From the NCBI GenBank assembly GCA_951406725.2, contig OX597815.1, forward strand, positions 57,350,001 to 57,414,000: 64,000 nt of DNA. Direction: 5' to 3'. Each line of letters opens with the position of its first letter. The stretch's first letter is position 1. The translations under genes and the position numbers were made by a program. Positions 13,640-62,587 of the stretch are shown one piece after another. The notes under the pieces were generated by a model. That model saw only the letters and a list, made by a program, of their open reading frames with translations, was not told where the DNA came from and did no database searches. Origin of the DNA: Octopus vulgaris (Eukaryota).

Positions 13640-13950
13640 ATATACACTATCCAGCAAAGCTAGCTGTTCTTTTAGAAATAGAAATTTGTGCATACTGAGC
13701 AAATACTGTAAGTCTGAGTCAATAATATGCAAAGCATCTGTTAGAGGAACCAATGCAGACAGCACCATCTGCATACAGAAGACAACTTTAAAGTAAGATA
13801 TAACAACCATACTACTACATTTAGAAACTGGAACCTATGTAACACCTCAAAGCTCTTCAGTTGTATATGGGATTTGAAAGAGAGGTACACCAACTATTCC
13901 ATCAACTGGAAGATACTAAAAAGAGGCAAGCTCAATGCTAAAAATAGTAG
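13640..13950 (+). mobile_element. Penelope-like GIY-YIG endonuclease remnant (continues at 15653-15715)
   Basis: Broken translation FKVRYNNHTTTF...IWDLKE...YSINWKILKR, resuming after the CR1 insertion as SRKCGLCYAERWLILEN; typical PLE endonuclease C-terminus. Confidence 0.55.
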
Positions 13951-15652
13951 TTGAGGATCCTTATCAACAGAGTCAATTATTTGCCGAGGCTTTTTCAACT
14001 ATTTTCAAACAAGATGATGGTCGTGAAACCCCTCCATTTGATAGATCGGTACCTCCAATGCTTCGATTGGTCATCACACGGGACGAAGTCAAACGTGTTA
14101 TTCAAGGCCTCGATGTCAACAAGGGTCACTGCCCTGACGGCATACACCCACGGGTTATCAAAGCGTTTGCTCCGGTCATCTGCAAGCCCTTAACACGACT
14201 ATTCAATATGTCATTGGCGACGGGTGTTATACCTGCAGACTGGAGAACAGCGATAATCTGCCCAATTTTCAAGAAAGGGAGCCGCGAAGACCCGCTTAAC
14301 TACCGACCGGTTTCCCTTACATCAATAATCAGCAAGATGTTCGAAACCATCCTTAAGAAAAGTATGATGCTCCACCTCCTAAACACAGCCTCGATCACTG
14401 ATTCCCGACACGGCTTCGTGCCGAAGAGATCATGCTTGACCAACTTACTAGTAATGGAAGAATTGGTGACGCGCATCCTCGATGATAGTGATGCTGTTGA
14501 CATCGTTTTATTGGACTTTGCCAAAGCTTTTGACTCGGTAAACCACCGCCTACTACTTGTCAAGCTTCAAGCATATAGTTTCCATCCGGATATTGTACGA
14601 TGGGTTGGTGCCTTCCTCTCAGATCGCTCCTTCCAAGTTCAAGTTAATGGTTCGCGGTCCGACGTCTCCAGTGCGAGCAGTGGCGTGCCTCAAGGTTCAG
14701 TGCTTGGGCCCTTGTTGTTCTTAGTCTTCATAAATGACTTGCCCGACGACCTCACGCAACACACCCTTCTATTTGCAGACGATATCAAACTGGTCGCTCC
14801 TCGCGGTAGTATAGAGGATCTTCGTCGATGCCTCCACCAAATTTGGAAGTGGTCTAACGATTGGGACCTGTGTCTGAACGTGTCAAAGTGCTGTCATCTG
14901 CCTGTCGGCTCTACTCCTGCAACTCAACTTGATTTCGAGCCGGGTCGTCTGCTGCTGGAGAGGACCGATCAGGTAAAGGACCTGGGTATCTTGGTGGATT
15001 CCTCCTTTTCGCCTTCGGCCCAGTGCGTCCCTGCTGCCAACAAAGCGCGCGGAATTCTGTTTTTGATTCGACGGTCATTCGGAATGCTCACAGCAGCCAT
15101 ATTCCTACCACTCTATGTCACGCTGGTGAGACCCATATTGGAGTATGGGATTCAAGCCTCTTCTCCTTATCTCCTCAAAGACATACAGCATCTCGAAAGA
15201 GTCCAGAGGCTGGCTACCCACATGGTTCATGGTCTCAAAAATTTGTCCTACGAAGAAAGGCTGAGGATGCTCGACCTTTATTCTCTTGAAAAACGCCGCC
15301 GCCGTGGTGATCTCATTCTCGCCCACAACATCATAAGCGGGAAGTGTAACCTCTCGAAAGAGCTGTTCTTCACTCCTGCTCCGGAGCGTCGGCTGCGGGG
15401 TCATTCCGAAAAGCTCTACCTGCGACGATTTCCTCTCAATCGAAGGAGAGGAGCTTTCTCCGTCCGGGTTGCGGATCCGTGGAACAAGCTGCCAGACGAG
15501 ATGGTGAAGATGCCGACGACTGCTTTGTTCAAGATGCCTGGACCTCAAGTGGCCTGAACTCTTTACATGAACACCACCCTGTACTTAACTCCATGTCCCC
15601 CTACATGGCCTTGCTATTTGCTTTTGAGCCAAATTAACTAACTAACTAACTA
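13951..15652 (+). mobile_element. Young 5'-truncated CR1/L2-group LINE with an open RT frame
   Basis: 540-aa ORF with NYRPVSLTS, LDFAKAFDSV, GVPQGSVLGPLLF, LFADD and LEKRRRRGDLI; (TAAC)n tail; 5-bp TSD AGTAG at 13946-13950 and 15653-15657. Confidence 0.9.
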
Positions 15653-20643: not shown

Positions 20644-21000
20644 TCTCTATATATATAAAACTGAGAATGTGTGTGCCTGTCTGTCTGTCTGTGTGTTTCC
20701 CTAAAACCTGAGAACTACACAACCAATTTCATTCAAATTTTACACATGCCTTACTTAGGGTCCATGTAGTTTCATGGGCAAAAAAAATGTTCAACTTCTT
20801 ACCTAGAGCGAGCTCATAGCAATATCATATCTTCTCCACTATTTCAGTATTACGTGTTAAAAGTGAAACAAAAACATTTCTCTATTTTATGCCAGATACT
20901 TTCACTGTAACAATAAAAATAATAATAACAATTGAATTATATGTAGTAAGTAATAATTAAAATCAAACTAAAGTATAATATAATTGTAACATAACAAAAG
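20644..21000 (+). mobile_element. Possible non-autonomous Helitron 5' portion
   Basis: A|TC...tatatataaaactgagaatgtgtgtg...ctgtctgtctgt start resembles Helitron 5' ends; no 3' hairpin-CTRR end found. Confidence 0.4.
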
Positions 21001-21079
21001 TAAAAATAGCAATTGGTAAAAAATTGCATCAATGACTTGAACTTGAATAAGTGGTTTCACATGAATGGAAATAATTTTA

Positions 21080-21208
21080 AAATAAAATTAACGTGCAGGA
21101 ATGGAATAGTCCAGATGGATAATAAAAAATTAAATTAAAGAAAAGACTATTGTCTATAAAGTATACAATGTAGAGAAAAAAGAAGATTTGAACACCTGGA
21201 GGAAATCA
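21080..21208 (+). pseudogene. Decayed ORF1 of an older Tx1-like retroelement, left half (host of the insertions)
   Basis: NKINVQE...IKEKTIVYKVYNVEK/RRFEHLEES aligns with KKINVED...EKRRIIYKTFN of the ORF1 at 23202. Confidence 0.6.
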
Positions 21209-22976
21209 TTTTTTTGCGTGTTGTTATCTGTGATTAGAAGTTGAAATTTTGTTGTGTAAAGTGATTAATATCGCGCGAGGCGTTTGCCTCCACGTTTGGA
21301 AACCTTCAGAAGAAGGTGAATTGACCCTCTAGTCATGGCGACTTACGCGGGGGTCACGGGAAAGAAAAATAATGATTCGTCGATAATCGTGAAGGATGTT
21401 TTCTTTGAGAAAAGTAAAATCAAAGAATATGAAAAGCTATTCAAAAGGGAGGGTGATAGCGTGAAGCTAATCCCCCCGCGAAAGCAAAGGAGGACAAGGA
21501 AAACAAAACTGTAACGTATAGAACCCAGGACAAAAGTACAAAGAAACTGGCAAGAGTGGAGATAGCAGAGATCGAAAAATGTCTGGGAGACATAATGGAT
21601 AAATCGACCTACGTGAGTAGAGGAAAAAAATTTGGTACGGTGGAGGTGAGATGTGCAACGGAAGAAATTGCAGCCTCACTGGCTACCACTGTTCTAAGAG
21701 CGGAAACATTTATAATGTGGCCCTCATACAAGGGAAGAAGAGGGGTCCGGGTTAAAATCCCGAATATACCCCCAGAAGTAAAAACAGAATGGCTGGCAAC
21801 AGCTATTCTAGGAGCAGCAGAAGAGGAAGTGGAGGTGGAATCCTTTAAGGAGTCCAACGCAGTAAATTGGAGAGGATATGGGGTAGAACTGTGTTTGATG
21901 GCCACAAAAGAGGACATTGAAAGGTTCCCCTATAGAATAGAAATCGAAGACGAGAAAACCCTCAGTGTAATTGTAGAGGGAAGAAAGCCAAACTGCTACT
22001 TGTGCGGGACAAGGGGGCACATTAAAAAAGAGTGCCCGTTATATGAATTCATGGCGGAGTATGAGAAGGAAAATGAAGAAAAGAAGAATACGGTAAATGA
22101 AAAAGAAAACATAGAAAAGGAGACAAAACAACAAGAGAAAGGAAATAATAAGTCAACGAAGGAAAAAGAAATAAAAGAAAAGAAAGAAATAGAACCAAAA
22201 CAGAGTCAGGAAAAGAAAAAGGAAAAAGAAATAACAGGAAAAAAACAAGAGAGAGAACAGAACCAAACGAAAAGAAAAGACGGCACACAAAAGAAAAAGA
22301 AAAGGAACATAAAACACGAGAGAAAGAGAGAACAGACAAAGAACCAAAAAGACAAGAGAAGGAAGAAGAAAGAAAAGAAGGCAAAAAGAGAGAAAGAGAG
22401 AAACAAAGAGAGGAGAACAAGGAAGAAATAAGCCCGAAAAGAAAAACGAGAGAAAACGTAGGACGGAAACAAGATTACTACAAGTTAATAACCTTCCATT
22501 TCAGCCCCGAAATGAAGGAATTGACATGTAGTATGGAGGGACATGTGTGGGTCAACAGGATGACTGATCAGTGGCAGGAGACTGCTCTGATCCCCGAAGA
22601 AAGAGTCGCTGAGTTCCTCAGAGCAGCTGGAGAGAGTGTAATTTTTTACACGGGTGTTCGAGTGAAAGAGCGGCTGCCTGAGGGCTCAGTGATTGACTTT
22701 AGAGACTTGAAAAGTATTATGGAATACGTGTGAGATTGTGAGAGGAGAGAGAAGAAAGAAGAAAAAAAAGAAAAAAAAAATTGTGAACTATATGTGACGA
22801 AAATGTAACCTCTCGATTCCGGGGATCGAGTGGGCATTTGCATCTCATTGTAAATATTCTTTCATTTGTCATTTTTATTTTTATTTTTTCCCTTCTTGTC
22901 ATTTCGCTTTCTTATTTTAAGTTCCCCGATTGTATTGTCCCCTCTATGTTCGCCCCTTGTGGGTAGTAATAAAATC
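21209..22976 (+). mobile_element. ORF1-only non-autonomous non-LTR element (half-LINE, element A)
   Basis: ATG at 21335; gag-like ORF1 (21556..22431) with CCHC knuckle CYLCGTRGHIKKEC and a Lys/Glu-rich tract; no ORF2; 3' tail and TTTGCGTGT 5' end shared with element B; bounded by 15-bp target duplications. Confidence 0.8.
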
Positions 22977-23201
22977 ACCTGGAGGAAAGCAATTTGCGTG
23001 TATAGTAAGTTATTATATTTTGCCATCGTATTTATTCTCTCCGTTATAATCTACTGTGTGTCTACCTGCTTTGTTTATTGCTGTACAACTGTTGAAGTCA
23101 GCCTTCGTGCGAGGACTTCGTAGTGGTGTTCCCCCCTCCATGGGGGAAAAAATATCATTTATCTGGGATTTACCAAGGGCTTGTTAAGCCAGTTGTTCGA
23201 G

Positions 23202-24521
23202 ATGGAATCCCCCATCTCATATTCTCCCGTGACTAGTGAAGAAGAATCTCCGGCGGTGTCGCCAAAGAAAAAAGAGGCGGTGGCGCCAAAGAAAAAGGAA
23301 ACCCCTGCACCAGCACCAGCACCAGCGAAAAAATTCTCAGAAGTAGCTGGTAAGAAAATCAAAAAAATAAACGTAGAAGACTTAAAGAAATATGTGGACT
23401 GTGTTACAAAAGAGGGCACGGAAGTGACAGTGGTCTCAAACGCCCAAAAACATGAGGAAATCGAAAAAAGAAGAATAATCTATAAGACCTTTAATACGAC
23501 AACCAAAATGATACAAAAAATTGAGGAAAAAAATCGAGAATTGTTTAAAACCATTAATGGACAAGATCACATACATCAACAGAGGAAAGAGATACGGCAC
23601 AGTAGAGGTGCGTTTCACAACAGAGGAGATAGCAAAAAAACTGTCGATGGAGCCAAAAAAAGCGGAGAACATTGTTCTCCTCCCCTTGTATAGAGGAAAA
23701 AGAACATCGAAAATCACGATTAATAACATTCCGCCAGAGGCAGATGCCGAATGTCTGGTGGCAGCAGTCATGGTAGGCCTGGAGGAAAAAATAAACATCC
23801 TCCAGGCCACAGTAGAGGAGGAGGAATTCTGGAAAGGGCAGCGGATTATAATAGCCATTCAGGCAGAAATTCAAACACTGGAGGAGATTCCAGAAACGCT
23901 AAAAATAAGTGAAGACGATAGAATAACAGTTTTCATTGAGGGCAGAAAGCCGAGGTGCTTCGGCTGCGGCAAGAAGGGTCATGTAAGGGCGGAATGCCAA
24001 CCCCAACCCAAACCGCAGGAAGCACCTCAGCCAGGTGAAAAAGAAGATGAAGTGTCACCAGAAGCAGCGCCGGGCGGCCCAGAGGGACGACTGAAGGTGT
24101 GGAGGTGACAGAGGCAGCAGAACCAGCGGCAGAGGAAAAAAAGAGCAATGAGGAGGGGTGGTCAAAAATCACCAGAAAAAAAAGAAAAACGGAAACCACC
24201 CCTCCCAGAGTGATCCAAAAGAAGAAAAGAGAATCGATGAACTCATATATGGCCGTTAAGGCATCAAACAACAGACTCGGGAACGTGTTGGCAGCTATGG
24301 CCAAAGTGGAAAAAATAGGAAAAGAGAATGACTATATAGTTTACAGAGTAGGCCGGAAGGATTACGGGCGGATAAAGTCCGAATTCTTTCATGACGTAGG
24401 CCCGCTCAGAATGGATTTAACATCTCCATATATATTCGAGGGCCTACGTCAGACTCCCCCACGAGGCCCAGAAAAAGAGATAAACAAAGAAGAAAAAGAA
24501 AAAACCGAACCACTGATATAA
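23202..24521 (+). pseudogene. LINE ORF1 (nucleic-acid binding, CCHC zinc knuckle), two frameshifts
   Basis: Split over ORFs 23181..23693, 23521..24108 and 24099..24521; RKPRCFGCGKKGHVRAEC. Confidence 0.85.
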
Positions 24522-24530
24522 AGGTAAGTA

Positions 24531-27500
24531 ATGGATTACATTTATGTTGGTTGTTTGAATGTGCGCGGCCTGGGAGCAGGCTGGAAGCAAGGTCGCTTCC
24601 TGCATGATATCAGGTCACGTAATTTAGATGTTATTGTTGCTACAGAAACCCGGTTAGAGGGGCCAAGAGGTCTACTCCTGCTGTTTCACGGCTACGAGAG
24701 ATTTTTCTCTCCTGGCAGTCCTACTGGCGGAAGTGGGGTGTTGGTCCTAATAAAAAGAAACCGGGTTTCTGAGAAAAAGTTAATTTTTGCAGATCCAGAA
24801 GGTAGGCTGGTCGTCATGGATTTGACGTTCAGTAATGGTAAAGTTATCAGACTGGTTGCAATTTACGCACCCAACCATACAGGGCAAAGTGATTATTTTC
24901 GTGAACTAGAAAACTTTCTTGGTACTTCGCATTCATTAGTTGTGCTAGGAGACTTTAACACAATTTGCAAAGCGGATGTAGATTGTGTTGGCTCGCGTTC
25001 AGATAGAAAAGGTAACAGTGGCTTCATGGAACTGCTAAGCCGCTTTGAGCTAGCAGATCCTTATAGGCTGGAATTTCCGAACGCTCCATTGTGGACATGG
25101 TCAAACAGCGACGGATCTTCCAGGTCATATTTAGATAGAATACTAATTAGAAAAGTAGACAGAAAAATAACTAAGTGTCCACAGTTTTACCCGATCAGCT
25201 ACAGTGATCATAAAATGGTCACCTGTAAGCTTGACATAGATAAGGTTAAAAATAGAGGATCCAGTTACTGGAAACTTAATACGTCCCTTTTGGCGATTAA
25301 GGAGTACAAAGACCGGATTAGGAATATAATTCAGAGGGCACTATCTGGTACCATCATTAATAACAAATGGTGGTACGCCCTCAAACGAGCCATCAAGTTC
25401 GAGTCAATTAGATATAGCATAGGAGTAGTGGCTAGAGAGGCTAGAAGGGAAACTACTCTAGTTAAGGAATTAGAGGAAGCCTTGAAAACTGGCTCTGTGG
25501 CTCAGGTGGCGTCCAAGAGACTGGTGTTAAACCAGCACCTCGAGGCCAAACACATGGGCTGCATTGTCAGGGCTAGGATCCGCCATATGGGTTGTGAAGG
25601 AATCAACGCCGTGAGATGGGCCCGAGTGGTGGAAGCTCAGCATGGTAACGATGCCAGGATTCGATCTTTGACGAACCAACAAGGTGAATTGATAAACGAG
25701 CCCGAGGAGATGTGTGAGGCCTTTCAGGAGCACTTCGCTCAGCTTTTCGGTGAGTGCGGCGGACTGGATAGGAGGAGGGCCTTTACTGACCTACTCGACG
25801 GGCTGCCGCGCTTATCGGGGCGAGATGCGGAGGGCTGTGAAGAGCCAATCACGCCTGAGGAGGTGGTTGAGGCAATGGCGGACTGCGGCGCGGGCAAGGC
25901 GCCGGGTTTGGATGGTCTACCCTATGAGTTATATAAGAGTATGCCAGACTTGTTCGGGCACCTACTGGCGGAGGTCTATGCGAACTGGCAGCAGAACGGG
26001 CTTATACCCAGATCTGTGCACCGGGGAGTAGTGACACTCGTCAGAAAGGACCCGAACAAGGGGGAATGCATTGATAATTTCAGGCCCATCACTCTGCTAA
26101 ACACAGAGTTGAAGATTTTGGCCAAAGTGTTATCGAAAAGATTGGCACGTGTCGCGGATGGTCTGATCGGGGAGGCACAGACATGTGCCGTTCCTGGCAG
26201 AACCATTCAGGATAATCTCCATCTTATGCGGTACACTATAGAGGGGTTTAATAGTGATTCTGGCAAGGGTGGGGCACTGGTCCATTTAGACCAATCTAAA
26301 GCATTTGATAGGGTCGACCATCGTTACCTGGTATCTGCCCTGGCACAGTTCGGGCTGAGCCTTGGCTTCCTCAGGTGGATTATCCAAATTTACGATAACA
26401 TTGACTCGGTAGTTCTTGTCGAAGCCGTTCAAAATCAAGCACTTGGTTCGTCAAGGGTGTCCGCTCTCCCCGCTTTTGTATGTGATGGCTCTTGAGCCAT
26501 TACTGCGAAAACTGAGCGGCATCCTGAGACAGCCAGGTAGTGGAAAATCGGTGTCAGCGTACGCGGATGACATCACCATCATCGTAACCGAAATGGACCA
26601 CCTACGTAAAGTAGGCAAGGCCATAGAGGTTTACGAGACGGTGACAGGAGCAAAAGTTAATCGCGAAAAGTCAGTCGGCTTGCAACTCGGCACCTGGAGA
26701 GGCAAGTCGATGTCTCCTGACAGCGTCTCGGGACATTGGACGGAGGGTCCGATTAAATTGCTAGGGGTCTGGTTCGGTCCAGACCTCCAAATAGAGAAGA
26801 ATTGGGACGAGGTATCGAGCAGGGTGGCTGCAGTAACCAAGACCTGGTCTTGGCCGTGGCTATCTCTGAAAGGGAGGGCGGAGGTGGCCAATGTGTTTAT
26901 CGCATCGGTCATCACCTACCGCCTTTCCGTCGTTCCTTGCCCTGATTCGTGGTTGATCAAGTTGGAAAGACAGCTCTTCTACTTCTTGTGGAATGGCGGG
27001 AAACCACTTGTGAAACGCTCTACTTGCTGTCAACAACCGTTAAAGGGTGGGCTAGGGATGCCTTGGCTGATGATGCGCAGACATGCGCTGAGGTTAAGAC
27101 ATCTGTGGCTCTACCTGGATGGTGAACGGGTGTGGTCTCCGCTAGCAAAACTGATGTTTCTCAAGTTCACTAGTTTCGGTGGATGGGAAACCTGGCTGAA
27201 TCGTAGATCGAAACTTGGCACTTGGTACACGGAGTGTCGCAAGGCTCTCCTGCTATTCCGTCGCTCGGGCAACGCCTGCGGTGGGAGTTCCACCACATTC
27301 TTCTATAGAGGGTTGGTAGAGGCGGAATGTGAAGATACCTTGGGGGAAACCCTGGGTCTCGACGATAATCAGCTGGCCAGTCTGTTCCGACGTACGTTCA
27401 AGCCGAAGACACTGGACAACTTCCAGAAGTCTCTGGCATGGCAATGCTACAGAGGAGCTCTACTTGTTCGGGATAAACTCGCAAGGCACGGTAGCCAAGA

Positions 27501-27912
27501 CAGTCCGATATGTCCAAGATGCGGGCGGGATAGGGAAACCATCCCGCACGCTATTGTTCATTGTCCGGACGTGTTTGAGGTGTGGGTTTATGCCGAACAG
27601 CTGTTGTCAAGTACACGAAGAGTACAGCTGTCGACTGAGTCGATTACAAAAATTGACCCACTGGATTTCCTCGTGAATGAAGGTAAGTTTCGTTTTCTCG
27701 TTGTAGTAGCAATTGCGAAAGAGGTGATATGGAAGATGAGAATGAAAGGTTTACAGTCAGGCAAGTTCATCTCCGGCCCTGGTTTGATGAATTATTTCAT
27801 CTTCCACCTGAAAAGGAAGATAGGGCTGGAGAGAATATGCCTGACTAAGAGAGTGTATGAAGAACGATGGAAAGATGTAGCACGAAAGTTGCGAGTGAAT
27901 GATACAACATAA
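24531..27912 (+). pseudogene. LINE ORF2 (AP endonuclease, reverse transcriptase, C-terminal CCHC), one frameshift near 26416
   Basis: LNVRGL, ETRL, YAPN, GDFN, SYLDRI, SDH (APE); WKLN; FRPITLLN, LDQSKAFDRV, QGCPLSPLL, AYADD (RT); CPRCGRDRETIPHAIVHC. Confidence 0.92.
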
Positions 27913-28160
27913 ATGTAAAACCAAACGAAACCAAAAGTATCAGTGGGGAGGCGGGGCTCGTGGGGTCTGAGCTAAACCCGCACCCACTCCATCCGTAATG
28001 TCTTCCTGTCTGTTCCAACATTCGATTTCTGTCTATTTTTGTAAATTTTCTGTAAATTTTTAAAATTCGCTTTTTTGTAAAACCCATATCGTGTATCTGA
28101 CCCCATCATCAGATTGTATTGTCCCATCTATGTTCGCCCCTTGTGGGTAATAATAAAACA

Positions 28161-28470
28161 ACCTGGAGGAAAGCACCATCGAAAAGTGTCTTGGTGCGAC
28201 TATGAAAGATATCTAACCAGAGGTGGTAAATCCGTCACAATAGAAGCAAGGTTCGAGTCAACACAGCGTGCAAGGGAGTACTCGACTCGAACTTGCAAAG
28301 TGGAAATATTTTATTTTTACTTTTATATCTGGGATGTAGGATGTGCCGGATAAAAATTTAAAATGCCCCCCCCCCCCCGAAGTTGAGGTAGGCTGGATTG
28401 TAGCCACACTTCTATACAAGAGGGAGGACAAGATACAATTGATCGAAATTGCAAGAGACAGGCTTACAAT
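28161..28470 (+). pseudogene. Decayed ORF1 of the older host retroelement, right half
   Basis: LEESTIEKCLGATMKD/YLTRGGKSVTIEARF...LYLGCRMCRIKI*NAPP/EVEVGWIVATLL aligns with IEKCLGDIMDKSTYVSRGKKFGTVEVRC...IPPEVKTEWLATAI of element A. Confidence 0.75.
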
Positions 28471-28648
28471 TCCAGTCTGTTATATATTTTGAGTATTGTT
28501 GTCACTAGCGATATCAAGATATAACTTTGTATTTTGTATTTTATGTGTAGATGTATATATATAGATGTACATGTAATATGTACACATATATATACACATA
28601 TATACATGCACTAGCACTATGACCTGGCAATGACGGGTCATAATGTAA

Positions 28649-32056: not shown

Positions 32057-33165
32057 AATGGTACCTTTCCTTCATTGGACACTAAACACTGCTTGTGAAG
32101 ACCTGTTGAGGCAAGTGAAATCGAAATCAAATTCAATGACTAGCATCCACGCTAGTGGAGCGCTAAGAGCACCATCCAAGCGTGATCATTGCCAGAGTGA
32201 TTAGGGGACCCTGGTAAAGACTTTCTCCATGTCAACGAAAGCCAGGTACAGAGGCTTATCTTTGGCTAAGTAGTTCTCTTGCAGCTGTCTCACCAGAAAT
32301 ATGGCATCAGTGGTGCTTTTCCCTGGCACGAAACCAAACTGCATCTCATCCAAGCTGACTCTCTCCCTAATCAGTTGGGCTATGACCCTCTCCGTAACCT
32401 TCATTACCTGATCCAACAGCTTGATACCTCTGTAATTATTTGTATCTAAAGCATCACCTTTACCTTTGTAGCAGTTGGCTATTATGCTGCTACACCAGTC
32501 ATTGGGTATGACTCCTTTGTGTATCACCTGGTTAACTATACGGGTGACTACGCTATAGCCGACACTACCAGATATTTTGAGCATCTCTGCAGTAATTCCT
32601 GATTGGCCTGGCGCTTTCCCTGTCTTCATGCTTCTAATTGCCTTAACTACTAAGGAACTGTCAACTCGGATAGCTGGTCCCTTTGTTGGGTCGACATTCC
32701 TCAGACTCTCTTTATGCCATTCATTTTCCTTATTTAACAGCCTCTCATAATGGTGTCTCCAAACCTCTCTCTTTGCATCCTCATTCAGCATAAGTGAGCC
32801 ATCATCCATGCGAACACATTTCTCTCCTACCACATCACGATTCTCTCTCTCACACTGTCTTGCAACACGGAATACCTCAAGTCTTTGGTCCTCACAGCGC
32901 AGAACATTGGCAAATTTTTCCTTATCTGCTTCCCTTCTGGCTAAATAAACCTGTCTCCTAGCTTCTCTTTTGGTAGTCTGATACAGTTCCCTGCTAACTA
33001 CCAGTCTATGTTGTGGGGTACATTCTTCGCCTGGGAAGGTTTTGGCATTTATAAACAGCCATCTTTCCCTTTTCCTAGCAAGGGTGTAGTCAATTTGGCT
33101 GGTATGTTGGCCCAGTCGGTAGGTGACTAGGTGGCTGGTAGGTTTCCTGAAGTTAGTGTTGCAAA
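32057..33165 (-). mobile_element. Internally deleted RTE LINE (endonuclease-end and RT fragment)
   Basis: ORF 32201..33238 with SQIDY, NYRGIKLL, QFGFVPGKSTTDAIF and AFVDMEK. Confidence 0.85.
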
Positions 33166-33394
33166 CACACATATATATATATCCTGTGTGACCCTTCTGT
33201 CCGGCATTCACCATGATAGATCGGTAGCCACTACACACATTTTTTTTCTCTCCTTGTTTCTTTCTGTGTTCCTTTCTGTGGAAGAGTGTAGGATCGAAAT
33301 GTTAAAGACTTTTTCAATTCCTGAGCATTATACTAATACATCTCTTTGTTTTCTACACCACCTGTCTTCGTCTTATGTTTTTTTCGTGAATTCT

Positions 33395-54181: not shown

Positions 54182-55695
54182 CCCTTTCGTTACCAAACTG
54201 CCCAAAGCCGCCCGAAAAAAATTTTGGTTAATGTGACCAAACCGCCCAAATCCGCCCGTATTTACCTATTCATATTTAAATGAGAATATCAGATCAAATC
54301 TCTTTAGTAAATTCGTGAAAACACGTGATTATACTTCGTAAACAGTTCATCTACAGTTTTGTACAACAATTGAAGTGTAATTTTAATTCCGTGAATTTTG
54401 GGAGATTTTTTTCCGAAATTTGTTCCTATTGTGTTTTCAAAATTTGTAATTCTGACAAAAAATGCATACGAATTTCATTATATCAAGCAGCGAGTCAGAA
54501 TTCGAAGGATTTTCTACTGAAGACCTTCATAAATCTAACTCTATGACTGAAAAAAAAAGCATGTGGTATTTGATAATGAATCTGATGTTTCAATTTCCGA
54601 AAGTGAAAACAGTGAATCCGAGAGCTCTGACAGTGATAAAGAAAATGAATTGGCACCTGAATGGAGTGAAAATTTAAAAACTGTTTCTTTCGGTGATTTT
54701 TCTGAAGAAACTGGACCAAGCCACAGACTTTCCCAGGAGAGTAAAACCTTAGACTATTTCTTTTTACTTTTTCGAATGAGCCTATTTGAAATCATTACGG
54801 CAGAAACGAACCGTTATGCTAAATGTAAACAAAGCGAAAGAAAGGCGCAGGAGTGGCTGTGTGGTAAGTAGCTTGCTAACCAACCACATGGTTCCGGGTT
54901 CAGTCCCACTGCGTGGCATCTTGGGCAAGTGTCTTCTGCTATAGCCCCGGGCCGACCAATGCCTTGTGAGTGGATTTGGTAGACGGAAACTGAAAGAAGC
55001 CTGTCGTATATATGTATATATATATGTATATGTATGTGTGTGTGTGTTTTTGTGTGCCTGTGTTTGTCCCCCTAGCATTGCTTGACAACCGATGCTGGTG
55101 TGTTTACGTCCCCGTCACTTAGCGGTTCGGCAAAAGAGACCGATAGAATAAGTACTGGGCTTACAAAGAATAAGTCCCGGGGTCGAGTTGCTCGACTAAA
55201 GGTGGTGCTCCAGCATGGCCACAGTCAAATGACTGAAACAAGTTTAAAAAAAAAAAAAAAAAAGGATAGTTAGTGGTTTCCCACAACCTTAAATGAAATT
55301 AAGACTATTGTTTCCCACAACCTTAAATGAAATTAAGACTATTTTGCCATAAATATTATTATGGGTATCAGAAAGTTACCCAGAATAACAAATTCTATCG
55401 TAAAATTTTGTTGTATACCCAATTGAATATTAGCTAATAACCCATTTTCTATAGCGATGTTTGAACAAAATTTTAATAATTTTATATTTTGTTGAATTTA
55501 CCTGTATTAGAGTCACTTTGTGACAAAAATTATAGTATAGAATTGGTTGAGAACATTTCATTAAATTATCTTCCAAAAATCACATTAATATATTGATAAA
55601 TAAAAAAGTTATAGTTGTTTAATGAAACCAGAATAAATTAATTAATTGGAACACATAAGGGGTGTATTTTGGTCAGAAATATAGTAACGAAAGGG
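54182..55695 (+). mobile_element. Non-autonomous piggyBac, copy 1 (interrupted by a SINE)
   Basis: TTAA TSDs at 54178-54181 and 55696-55699; TIR CCCTTTCGTTAC/GTAACGAAAGGG; transposase N-terminal remnant ...LDYFFLLF...ETNRYA. Confidence 0.92.
54844..55263 (+). mobile_element. SINE family 2, full-length with poly(A) tail, inserted in piggyBac copy 1
   Basis: tRNA-like head ggcgcaggagtggctgtgtggtaag...ggttcagtccc, internal TA/TG tract, A-tail; absent from piggyBac copy 2. Confidence 0.85.
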
Positions 55696-57745: not shown

Positions 57746-59945
57746 TGTTTGTGTTTGTGTGTGGGGGCCGTTTTTGATTGGTCCCAGGGTTTATTGTGGT
57801 GTATGTAAATGTGTCTGTGTGTGCTTAATATTTGGTAGGATGGTGTGTGTATATGTGTGCACGTTTGTGTGTGTGGTTAATATTTGTTAGGGTGTTGTGT
57901 GTATGTGTTTGTTCCCATGTGTGTATATGTGCGTCTGTGGGTGCGTGTGTATGCTTGTGTATTTTTTGTGTTAGTGGGGATGTTATGTGTGTGTAGGTGA
58001 GTGTGTGTGTACCTGAATGTGTGTGTATCTCTGTCTTAGTATGTTTGTGTTGTTATGATTGTCTTGGTGTTGTGTGTGTATGTATGTGTGTGATTGGTAT
58101 TTGTTATAGTGTTGTGTGTGCACATGTGTATATTTATGTGTTTGTTTGCATGTGTGTATGTGTGCGTCTGTATGTGCGTACGTGAATGTTTGTGTGTTTA
58201 TTGTGTTGGTGGGGATGTTATGTGTGTGTATTTGAGTGTGTTGTGTCTGAGTATGTTTGTGTTTTAATTGTCCTTGTAGTGTGTGTGCATGTGATCAACC
58301 ATATGTGTGTGTGATTGTCTTGGTGTTGTGTGTGTGTATGTATGTGTGTAATTGGTATTTGTCATGGTGCTGTGTGTGTGTATATGTGCATCTGTATGTG
58401 TGCACGAGCTGTTAGGAACATTAGCGCTCCGGGCAAAATGCTTAAGGATATTTCGTCTGCCGCTATGTTCTGAGTTCAAATTCCGCCGAGGTCGACTTCG
58501 CCTTTCATCCTTTCAGGGTTGATTAAATAAGTACCAGTTATGCACTGGAGTCGATAATCGACTTAATCCATTTGTCTGTCCTTGTTTGTCCTCTCTGTGT
58601 TTAGCCCCTTGTGGGTAGTAAAGAAATAGGTATTTCATCTGTCTTTACGAAATAAGGTGGTGAGTTGGCAGAATCCTTAACACGCTGGGCGAAATGCTTA
58701 GCGGTATTTCGTCTGCTGCTACGTTCTGAGTTCAAATTCCGCCAAGGTCAACTTTGCCTTTCATCCTTTCAGGGTTGATTAAATAAGTACCAGTTACGCA
58801 CTGGGGTCGATATAATCAACTTAATCCATTTGTCTGTCCTTGTTTGTCCCCTCTGTGTTTAGCCCCTTGTGGGTAGTAAAGAAATATGTATGTGCGTGCG
58901 TGTATGTTTGTGTGTTTTTTGTGTTGGTGGGGATGCTATGTGTGCGTATGTGTATGTGTGTTTTTTGTGTTGGTGGGGATGTTATGTGTGTGTATGTGAG
59001 TGTGTGTGTGTTGTGTCTGTCTGAGTATGTTTGTGTTTTAAATGTCTTTGTGGTGTGTGTGTGTGTGAGCAACCGTATGTGTATGTGAGGGTGCATATGT
59101 ATGTGTGTGGGTATGTGTGGATAAGTGTGTTGTTGTTATCAGGGGTTCTGTGTGTCCATGTGTGTTGGGTTTATCTGGGTGGTGTGTATGTGTGTGTATA
59201 TGTGTTTTGTGTGTATTGGTGTTGAGTATGCGTTTGTGTGTGTCTGTTTTTATATGTGGGTATGGTTTATGTAGTCCTGCAGTCTCCAGGTGTGTGTGTA
59301 TGCACACATGTGTGTGCACACATGTGTGTGTTGCATTTGTGAGTGATTTGTTTTGTTTGTATTGTTAGTGCAGTGTGTGTATACATGTAGGTGTGTTTGT
59401 GTGGGTGTGTCTATGTGTCTTGTATTTGTCGGGGAGGTGTGTGTCATTGTGTGTGTGTGCATGCTTGTGTGTATGTATGTTTGTGAATGTTTGTTGTGGT
59501 TGTTGTGATTGTATTATAAGTGTATGTGTGTCTTTTCTTTTGAATGTGTGTGTGATTTTATTACTGGGGTATGGGTGTATTGTGCACGTGTGTGTACAGG
59601 TGTGCATAAATGCATGTGTGTTTGTGTGAGTTGTGTTGTAGTTGCATGTTTGTTTGTGTATGTGTGGTTGTGTTTGTGTGAATGTGATTTGTAATTTCGG
59701 GGTGGTGTGTGTAGGTGTGTGCATGTCTGTGTTCACATATGTGTATATGTGTGTGAAAGTGTTGGTTATGGTTGCTAAAATCATATTGCAAGTGTATATA
59801 TGTATGTGTTTTTTCTTGGGATGTGTGTGGGTTTGTGCTCTAGTGTGAGGATATTGTATTTGTGCATGTGTGTATTTGCGTCGGAGGTTGGCATTGTTTT
59901 TGTGTGTGTGATTTTGTATATCTGTATGTGTTTCTCTGTGTGTTT
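57630..59945. repeat. Long degenerate TG-rich low-complexity tract
   Basis: Directly visible; yields spurious C/V-rich and H/T-rich ORFs. Confidence 0.9.
58406..58886 (+). mobile_element. Two tandem copies of SINE family 3
   Basis: Units 58406-58628 and 58654-58886, each with a gagttcaaattcc B-box-like motif, the core gcctttcatcctttcaggg...aaataagtaccag, and the tail gccccttgtgggtagtaaagaaata. Confidence 0.85.
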
Positions 59946-61157
59946 GTTTTGGATTTGTAGCGGGGGGGGGGGCTAGAGTATGTTGAGTTGTGGTCTGTAT
60001 TTTGGAATAAGATTATTTCCCCTATTTATTCGTGTTTAGTCAGTGGTGTTGTCCGGGCATTGGTATAGTGGGAAAACTAGGAATTTGGGGGACTTATTGT
60101 GTGCACAGAGGTCTAAATGCCCACTAAGTTGTATCTGTCTTGTGGTGAGATCCCTCAGTTGTTGGCAGTGAACTGTCATCCTTTCTCTGAGGGTAAGGCT
60201 CGTTTGCACTATGAAGTCTTTGTGGCACCCTTCACACCTTATGACATAGAGTAAATTCTTTGATGTGCAGGTGAAATTATTTTTTGACAAAAATGTGTCC
60301 CGACTGGAATTTGTACACTGATCCTTCAATGAGGTGGATGCAAGTCCTGCAGTTGGAATGACCACATTTTTTGACGGTGGGCGGTGGGTTTGTGTTGGGT
60401 AATTTTGCATTGGTGAGTAGGTTTTTTAGGGATTTGGGTTGTCTTTTGCTTTTTATTATTTTATGGTTTGCGAGTAATTTTTTTAGACATGTGACTTCAT
60501 TCAGCTGTGGAATGTTGTATATAATTGTGTAAGCTTCTGCATTTCTTGGATTGTATGTTGAGAGATAGGGGAGGCTATTTACTGTACTGTGGGTGTGTTT
60601 TGGTTTTTGTAAGTCTTGGGTGGTAATTGATTTGGTATATTCTATTCCATTGTCAACTAGTGATGCTGGGTAATGTCTTTTGAGAAGAATTGCCTTTAGT
60701 TCTTGGAGTCTTTTACTTCGTGTTCTATAATTTGAGACAGTTGTGCAGATTCTTCTTGTTAGGTTGAAGGGAATATTTGCCTTTGTGTGCTTTAGGTGAT
60801 TGCAGGTGAACAGAAGGTATTGTTTGGAATCAGTGGGTTTGTAGTGGATGTCAGTTCCAATGTTGGTGCCTTTTTTAATAATAAGAATGTCAAGAAAAGG
60901 AAGTTGGTCTTGACTATATTCCATTGTAAATTGGATATGGTTTTTGACACTGTTGATAAGGTTTTTGAAGTCAATAAGTTGGTCGAATGTGTGGGACCAT
61001 AGGATGAGGCAATCATCTAAGTAACTTTTCCAATTCTCCAACAAGTACTTGTGGAAAGACAGGCCGTACTTATATTTGGATTTTTCATAAATATGTGATT
61101 CTAGGTTTGCATAGGTACTTTAGTACCCATTACAGTTCCTGATACCTGTGTTGTTAA

Positions 61158-62243
61158 CCCTTTCGTTACCAAATCGCCCAAAGCCGCCTGAAAAAAATTT
61201 TGGTTAATGTGACCAAACCGCCCAGAGCCGCCCGAATTTACCTATTCATATTTAAATGAGAATATCAGAGCAAATTTCTTTAGTACATTCGTGAAAACAC
61301 GTATTATACTTCGTAAACAGTTCAACTACAGTTTTGTACAATAATCGAAGTGTAATTTTAATTCCGTGAATTTTGGGAGATTTTTTTCCGAAATTTGTTC
61401 CTATTGTATTTTCAAAATTTGTAATTCTGACAAAAAATGGATACGAATTTCATTATATCAAGCAGCGAGTCAGAATTCGAAGGATTTTCTACTGAAGACC
61501 TTCATAAATCTAACTCTATGACTGAAAAAAAAAAGCATGTGGTATTTGATAATGAATCTGATGTTTCATTTTCCGAAAGTGAAAACAGTGAATCTGAGAT
61601 CTCCGATAGCGATAAAGAAAATGAATTGGCACCTGAATGGAGTGAAAATTTAAAAACTGTTTCTTTCGGTGATTTTTCTGAAGAAACTGAACCAAGCCAC
61701 AGACTTTCCCAGAAGAGTAAAGCCTTAGACTATTTCTTTTTACTTTTTCGAATGAGCCCATTTGAAATCATTACGGCGGAAACGAACCGTTACGCTAAAT
61801 GTAAACAAAGCGAAAGAAACGATAGTTTGTGGTTTCCCAGAACCTTAAATGAAATTAAGACTATTTTGCCATAAATATTATTATGGGTATCAGAAAGTTA
61901 CCCAGAATAACAAATTCTATCGTAAAATTTTGTTGTATACCCAATTGAATATTAGCTAATAACCCATTTTCTATAGCGATGTTTGAACAAAATTTTAATA
62001 ATTTTATATTTTGTTGAATTTACCTGTATCTACCTGCAATTAGAGTCACTTTGTGACAAAAATTATAGTATAGAATTGGTTGAGAATATTTCATTAAATT
62101 ATCTTCCAAAAATCAGATTAATATATCGATAAATAAAAAAGTTATAGTTGTTTAATGAAACCAGACTAAATTTATGATTACGTTAGAAATTAATTGAAAC
62201 ACATAAGGGGTGTAATTTGGTCAGAAATATAGTAACGAAAGGG
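61158..62243 (+). mobile_element. Non-autonomous piggyBac, copy 2 (1086 bp), inserted in the Penelope RT
   Basis: TTAA at 61154-61157 and 62244-62247; same 12-bp TIRs; ORF 61437..61874 is an acidic piggyBac transposase N-terminus. Confidence 0.93.
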
Positions 62244-62587
62244 TTAAAATTCATGAAGTTGTTTTGGAAAATAAATTTTAGGCCCTTGATGATGAATTCT
62301 TTTTTTATTCTTTCTGGGACCTCATTGGGATATTTATCTTGCCAGAATTTAATGGCTTCCAGTCCTAATATTTTAATGAACTTTTTAATATTTTCCAATG
62401 TTTTTCCTTGTAAACTGTTTTAACATGTTATTATTATCAAAGAATGTATATATGTATTGCAATATTTTGTGACAATCAGTACTTAACACAACAAAGCTTT
62501 TACATGTTACTTTTGACAATCTTTTTCTAAAAAAGTGGAACCGGTCAAGTGAATAAACACCTTTTAAAATTGCATTTTCAAACCCTC

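Follow-up and report, generated by a model that had tools for sequence, protein, structure and literature searches.

Two different LINEs stacked at one 15-base site in the decayed ORF1 of a related, abundant retroelement of Octopus vulgaris

What brings two different long interspersed nuclear elements (LINEs) to the same 15 bases, one behind the other, and why do these bases lie in the coding DNA of a third retroelement? The question is raised by a 64,000-nucleotide stretch of the Octopus vulgaris genome (contig OX597815.1, positions 57,350,001 to 57,414,000, here called the window). In this window, element A, which has only the first open reading frame (ORF1), and element B, which has ORF1 and ORF2, stand head to tail within the decayed ORF1 of another lineage, the host. 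The stack is real and well-formed. The explanation that we favour, at a probability of roughly two in three (0.68), is that a sequence-specific endonuclease of the L1/Tx1 type targets the ORF1 of the host family, an abundant and apparently dead kin, as a safe haven. The features that bear on this explanation are the following, in window coordinates.

21134-21193, + strand: host ORF1 before the site, first RNA recognition motif (RRM), decayed; colinear with the part 3' of the site in comparison with B-type and A ORF1; high depth
21194-21208, + strand: target-site copy 1, the T variant, with T at position 13
21209-22976, + strand: element A, 1,768 bp, full-length non-autonomous LINE with ORF1 only, HAL1-like in build
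21335-22733, + strand: ORF1 of A, two RRM-like domains, K/E-rich linker and CCHC knuckle; frame broken near 21471 and near 22288
22928-22976, + strand: 3' tail of A, common to B, ending in AATAAAA plus 2 nt, no poly(A)
22977-22991, + strand: target-site copy 2, between A and B, a match to the 15-mer
22992-28160, + strand: element B, 5,169 bp, two-ORF LINE of the L1/Tx1 group, full length, damaged
23202-24521, + strand: ORF1 of B, frame breaks near 23520 and 24100; core about 37% identical to the ORF1 of A
23777-23791, + strand: near-target in the ORF1 of B, 12/15 match with an exact 11-nt core, unoccupied
24531-27912, + strand: ORF2 of B, apurinic/apyrimidinic endonuclease (APE), reverse transcriptase and zf-RVT; one frame break near 26420
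28112-28160, + strand: 3' tail of B, shared with A
28161-28175, + strand: target-site copy 3, in the reading frame of the host ORF1 (HLEES codons)
28176-28459, + strand: host ORF1 after the site, decayed, with a stop and at least three frame breaks; homology extends to about 28459

According to the original prediction for this DNA, three copies of a 15-mer exactly bracket A and B. All three were found again in their places, and the window contains no other match with up to two mismatches. The chance expectation is 0.20 copies, and three copies were reached in none of 100 shuffles. The pattern is n+1, with three copies of the site around two elements, and both nick positions are identical for A and B. 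It had also been claimed that removal of the two elements rejoins a decayed frame with homology to ORF1. This is borne out by frameshift-aware alignment, in which the flanks without A and B are colinear with ORF1 across the site, with scores of 119 for A and 144 for the B-type protein P0010 (a relative, at 75%, of the ORF1 of B, from O. sinensis), against best scores of 39 and 35, respectively, in 12 shuffles.

The host is a third lineage, related to those of A and B, as the original prediction had it. A profile search identified 799 ORF1 relatives at E<=0.001, and a tree was built from 86 rows, comprising A, B, the host and 83 fetched proteins with at least 80 of the 125 core columns. The host ORF1 forms a clade with P0141, P0044 and P0064 (99/96) that excludes A and B, in a tree that has few columns and rough, not fully settled bootstrap values. 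At the amino acid level, it is 32% identical to A and 34% identical to B. A similar peptide, EESTIEK, is present in P0064, which belongs to the host lineage. No intact host ORF1 was found: among 157 ORF1 proteins retrieved, the closest to the host reach 46-54% and none is near-identical to it, and a protein search with a 47-amino acid piece of the host, which is a weak test, gave no match. Proteins that start exactly at the site were considered as marks of insertion and rejected, their start being a natural methionine.

The 15-mer is a target-site duplication (TSD) of host DNA, and the host is a high-copy repeat with many empty sites, as follows from empty joins across a single site and from the high depth of the host. 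Logan contigs from 4 of 24 runs (X1, X2, X5 and X9) were aligned to positions 21000-28540 at 82% likeness, and the tables hold the best 15 among 588 joints, 24 among 6000 loose ends and 40 among 1635 letter rows. Among the joints listed, 21193 is connected to 28161 in 6, 1, 2 and 0 contigs of the four runs, in the above order, and 21196 to 28164 in 2, 4, 3 and 1 contigs; the longest short side of these empty joins is 57 nt. Among the rows listed, loose ends before 28161 read as the 5' flank of the host in 27, 27, 22 and 18 contigs. Empty host copies, to which the original prediction had pointed as a check, are present in 4/4 runs, with the host flanks joined across one 15-mer, as expected for a multicopy target. 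The empty joins share just 12 letters with copy 1, and the T in copy 1 is therefore probably a change that arose in that copy. Since copies 2 and 3 are identical and copy 1 differs by one base, the insertion order A then B is weakly favoured.

Summed depth, relative to the median of low-depth contigs, is 824-10,769x for the host at 28232 and 28264, 14-349x at three places in A, and 11-164x at three places in the ORF1 of B. These values are rough, do not stand for copy numbers and were used only for their order, which places the host far above A and B, at roughly 10-100x the depth of A or of the ORF1 of B. Joins from 21183 to 28161-28165, at appreciable depth, point to variation in the first bases of the site among some empty host copies, which may be escape variants or may reflect plain decay. 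A deletion allele was considered for the joins from 21186 to 28462-28468, but these are read as a repeated A-rich motif.

Judged by its sequence, B is likely a member of the Tx1 clade of the L1 group. Its ORF2 contains the Pfam domains PF03372, PF00078 and PF13966, and no RNase H family was detected in it by Pfam at E<=0.1. The best relative with solved structure is human L1 ORF2p (E 1.7e-11), and the Atlas yielded generic EN/RT clusters only. In the Tx1 clade, ORF1 contains RRM domains and a CCHC knuckle. The Pfam match to zf-CCHC is weak in the ORF1 of B (E 0.027) and stands at E 7e-05 in that of A. The structure predicted for the ORF1 of A (pLDDT, the predicted local distance difference test score, of 93.9) matches tandem RRM proteins (Foldseek E 2.6e-05) and can be superimposed on VIA with Z 7.6 and a root-mean-square deviation of 2.9 over 71 residues. 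The ORF1 product of A is thus predicted to consist of two RRMs and a CCHC knuckle. A has both ends and an ORF1, without ORF2, and only 243 bases separate the ORF1 stop (22733) from the end of the element (22976). Named O. vulgaris proteins match the ORF1 of A at 96-99%, and near-identical proteins are encoded on six chromosomes and one scaffold; on the six chromosomes they are 93-100% alike, with the exception of one that has a frame break in its N-terminal part and reaches 86%, as compared at the protein level only. The copies in the window are damaged, with frame breaks in the ORF1 of A and in both ORFs of B. At both break places in A (21471 and 22288), other copies in the Logan contigs have one extra base.

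That A and B share their start and their tail was part of the original prediction, and it is confirmed here. The 9-nt start TTTGCGTGT is found in both elements, 1-4 bases after the boundary; it has 4 matches in the window, two of which are the starts of A and B, at an expectation of 0.30. The common tail of 47 nt is 95.7% identical, and in both elements it ends at equal distance from the site. Besides this tail, blastn detected no DNA similarity between A and B. Folding of the tail is no better than that of shuffles (z -0.23 and 0.20). The depth increases several-fold at the boundary between ORF1 and ORF2 of B (interval 24276-24779), as if a similar ORF2 were common to many families with different ORF1s.

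If the favoured explanation is correct, A and B would have been placed successively, head to tail, by an endonuclease that recognises the 15-base stretch in the host ORF1. The ORF2 protein of the B type would nick the bottom strand directly before ACCTGG, reverse transcription of the RNA would start from the shared 47-nt tail, and the top strand would be nicked 15 bases on, so that the duplication rebuilds the site. The rebuilt site could then be re-entered by later elements, which would lead to growing stacks. A, which lacks ORF2, would be carried in trans via the shared tail, with B or a sister family (family C, for instance; see below) as the carrier, and the thousands of old host copies would provide a harmless landing place. 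The position of the nick, the mobilisation of A in trans, the order of the insertions and the reading of host sequence by the enzyme are what we infer from the arrangement of the locus.

Stacking of A seems to recur elsewhere in the genome. Among 22 CAI accessions with A sequence, from six chromosomes, there are nine neighbouring pairs within 2 numbers, compared with 0.05 expected from random draws and at most 2 in 10,000 draws; this count leaves out two CAJ accessions and assumes that the numbering follows genome order. Six of the nine pairs (6/9) differ in sequence. The longest run comprises five proteins, which differ pairwise by 1-23 residues and therefore represent separate copies. Some gene models combine A with a further family, termed C. 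In P0166, P0167 and P0181, from two chromosomes, an 88-amino acid peptide of C is fused to the C-terminal part of A; in P0003, from a third chromosome, diverged forms of C and A are fused. C mostly ends in GK, and as this resembles one reading at the ORF1/ORF2 junction of B, we infer that C would be the end of the ORF1 of another LINE, situated upstream of A, whose ORF2 the gene predictor has bridged by a splice. The joined models are probably false genes that originate from LINE stacks. The A and C proteins behind this evidence were found through their clustering with A. Family C as a whole is a young repeat with a peptide of 89 amino acids (P0163-P0170, P0179-P0181 and P0003), with one form on 9 contigs and with C spliced onto A in several cases.

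Some observations weigh against a targeted insertion into the host. B itself has an unoccupied near-site in its ORF1, at 23777-23791. The claim that neither element carries the target is thus correct for the full 15-mer (at the codon-equivalent place, where there is a frame break, A matches in 6/15 and B in 4/15 positions, ungapped), but it does not extend to this 12/15 match in B. The hairpin loop of the B endonuclease aligns gap-free to the loop of the promiscuous human L1. The ends of two SINE-like units (short interspersed nuclear elements), at 58582-58627 and 58840-58885, match the tail of A and B at 83-87% and have unrelated flanks, so that the tail alone does not imply the target. No flank of any other copy of A or B is present among the rows listed for the four runs, and no host-to-B join without A among the best 15 of 588 joints. 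A weak tail join, from 28157 to 28466, is supported by one contig in each of three runs, with a short side of 21-22 nt. As to stacking elsewhere, 3/9 of the neighbouring A pairs consist of identical proteins, perhaps isoforms, and the gene-model runs provide accession order only, with no distances or flanks. Position 28466, shortly beyond the end of the host ORF1, could be either a second site or a chance match to A-rich sequence. The units near 58582 and 58840, for which ARAGORN found no tRNA, may represent a SINE carried by a related L1/Tx1 family.

A stack of this kind could also arise from the chance insertion of one element into the host, if later elements then inserted directly behind the tail of a sister, with a fixed stagger of 15 bases, re-copying the sequence that follows. 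This would account equally well for the A runs and the C-to-A neighbours, agrees with the equal distance of both tails from the site, and resembles the known self-nesting of LINE clusters in Zepp (PMC3446292). Yet it requires that the first hit fell by chance in the ORF1 of a kin, at a place that reads like the empty host copies. The O. vulgaris genome has a size near 2.8 Gb. L1-Tx1 sequence in the assembly totals 56.3 Mb, according to the supplement of PMC13282606. If the above size applies, this is about 2% of the genome, with ORF1 only part of that 2%, and we consider the explanation unlikely. In another scenario, the endonuclease is specific, and its main target is a different multicopy sequence (a small RNA gene, a satellite or a DNA transposon), to which the host codons are similar by coincidence. 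Tx1 elements do switch targets, among U2, U5, 5S, microsatellites and transposons (PMC4494074), and no other A or B flanks are seen in the rows listed. However, no Rfam family reaches the gathering score in the window (the only match, at 28140-28400 with E 6.6, is unrelated, and the test is weak for 15-20 nt), a single off-target would hardly be entered twice, and sites are very numerous in the host family itself, which leaves this scenario quite improbable. The tRNA scan of the window was empty as well. A likeness of the 15-mer to snRNA ends found no support in the Rfam and tRNA scans and was dropped. Searches of wider contig collections found no loci for the tail pattern in metagenome or viral contigs, for the target pattern in viral contigs, or for the ORF1 alignment in metagenome, genome or viral contigs.

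It is very unlikely that one read-through unit carried A, the site and B at once, or that arrays grew by unequal crossing-over, so that the locus would record one true insertion. In favour of such processes, C and A show matching subtypes across the 4 joined gene models, and neighbouring A proteins have a mosaic look. Nevertheless, neither A nor B is a duplicate of the other, the partner of A is B at this locus and C or A elsewhere, and the inner copy of the site would still require an earlier insertion at the same sequence. That the 15-mer belongs to the ends of the elements themselves is extremely improbable, even though it is located directly 3' of the tail in both A and B. There are three copies for two elements, the 15-mer is in frame in the host ORF1, it is single in the empty host copies, and P0064 has a similar peptide (EESTIEK). 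The original prediction had named an origin from element termini among the outcomes that would refute its view, and the empty joins reject this origin.

For the targeted insertion that we favour, a dead repeat that offers shelter is a better fit than a live rival under attack, given that A is young, that the host copy is decayed and that no intact host ORF1 came to light. Attack on a live competitor is unsupported, and an older rivalry has a low probability. The original prediction had described the locus as the targeting of a related ORF1 and as a transposon-versus-transposon system. The former description is supported in part, in that the TSD consists of host DNA, the host is a separate and abundant lineage, and A seems to stack elsewhere, but the latter goes beyond the data, in view of the decay of the host copy and the lack of an intact host ORF1 among the proteins searched. 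It is rather doubtful that at least three L1/Tx1 families of the octopus (A, with ORF1 only, B and C) form a guild that directs a common endonuclease against the RRM codons in the ORF1 of a rival LINE lineage, that they escaped it through changes in their own codons, and that this guild contributed to the extinction of the rival, in which case the stacks would be fossils of a homing war between sister LINEs.

Among known Tx1 families, PMC4494074 lists some that prefer the piggyBac element Tx1D, Mariner, Harbinger, long terminal repeat (LTR) elements, U2, U5, 5S or microsatellites. Since Tx1 elements that target other transposons have already been published there, it is the kind of target, a kin LINE ORF1, that would be new, not the principle. 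Literature titles and the starts of abstracts, a scope that lies outside Repbase, Dfam and most subscription papers, revealed no LINE aimed at the ORF1 of a different LINE family. For O. vulgaris, 80 L1-Tx1 consensus families have been reported, 13 of them recently active (PMC13282606), and a term search for the word "target" in the main text of this paper gave no hit. Like the elements described here, Tx1L of Xenopus is an APE-type LINE that inserts at one sequence inside another transposon, the piggyBac-type Tx1D. In contrast to Tx1D, the target here is coding DNA, the ORF1 of a related LINE. The hairpin loop of Tx1L is two residues longer than that of L1 (PMC1950540), whereas the loop of B has L1 length, and the specific nicking by Tx1L has been demonstrated (PMC1950540, PMC4494074), whereas specificity is deduced from the locus in our case.

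The crocodilian families Tx1-Mar, Tx1-8_Crp/Tx1-4_AMi and Tx1-9_AMi, together with their non-autonomous partner SINEU-3, likewise prefer old, abundant transposons, and tandem SINEU-3 copies enclose one TSD (PMC4494074), in the manner of the stack in the window. They differ in that their targets are Mariner, LTR and Harbinger elements rather than a non-LTR ORF1, and in that the partner is a SINE and not, like A, an element that encodes ORF1. In the same work, a LINE is regarded as target-specific if more than 20% of its flanks are in one kind of repeat; for A and B, a single locus was seen directly, and the gene-model runs carry no flanks. With its two ends, an ORF1 and no ORF2, A is comparable to the ORF1-only LINEs HAL1 (half-L1), HeT-A and Ag-Sponge (PMC5786205), and as in HAL1, its tail is shared with an autonomous LINE, here B. 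However, the ORF1 of A is only about 37% identical to that of B, so B may not be the parent of A, and the HAL1 passages of PMC5786205 make no mention of site-specific stacking. Zepp of Chlorella and Coccomyxa also forms nested clusters inside LINE DNA, but it nests in its own family, with one cluster per chromosome (PMC3446292), whereas the stacks in Octopus are seemingly dispersed. Self-nesting of the Zepp type is not what is found here, as the host ORF1, at 32-34% identity to A and B, belongs to another clade.

The window contains further mobile elements. At 61154-62247, inspection by eye shows 12-bp inverted ends flanked by TTAA and a short ORF (61431-61874), presumably of an element of piggyBac type, and a second right end is present near 55680. 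Reverse transcriptase fragments (PF00078) at 13920-15557 (+ strand) and 32201-33301 (- strand) are unrelated to the stack by blastn.

If the favoured explanation is true, the coding DNA of kin LINEs joins the list of targets of sequence-specific APE retrotransposons. A, B and C, together with the 799 related ORF1 clusters, would then be a natural set for studies of how target specificity arises and switches, and the same families may reveal whether specificity begins as self-nesting, as rivalry or as a search for shelter. A young APE lineage that combines a 15-base duplication at a defined site with a loop of L1 length would also be useful for understanding the basis of enzyme specificity. For the octopus genome, it would mean that stacks of LINEs give rise to false gene models.

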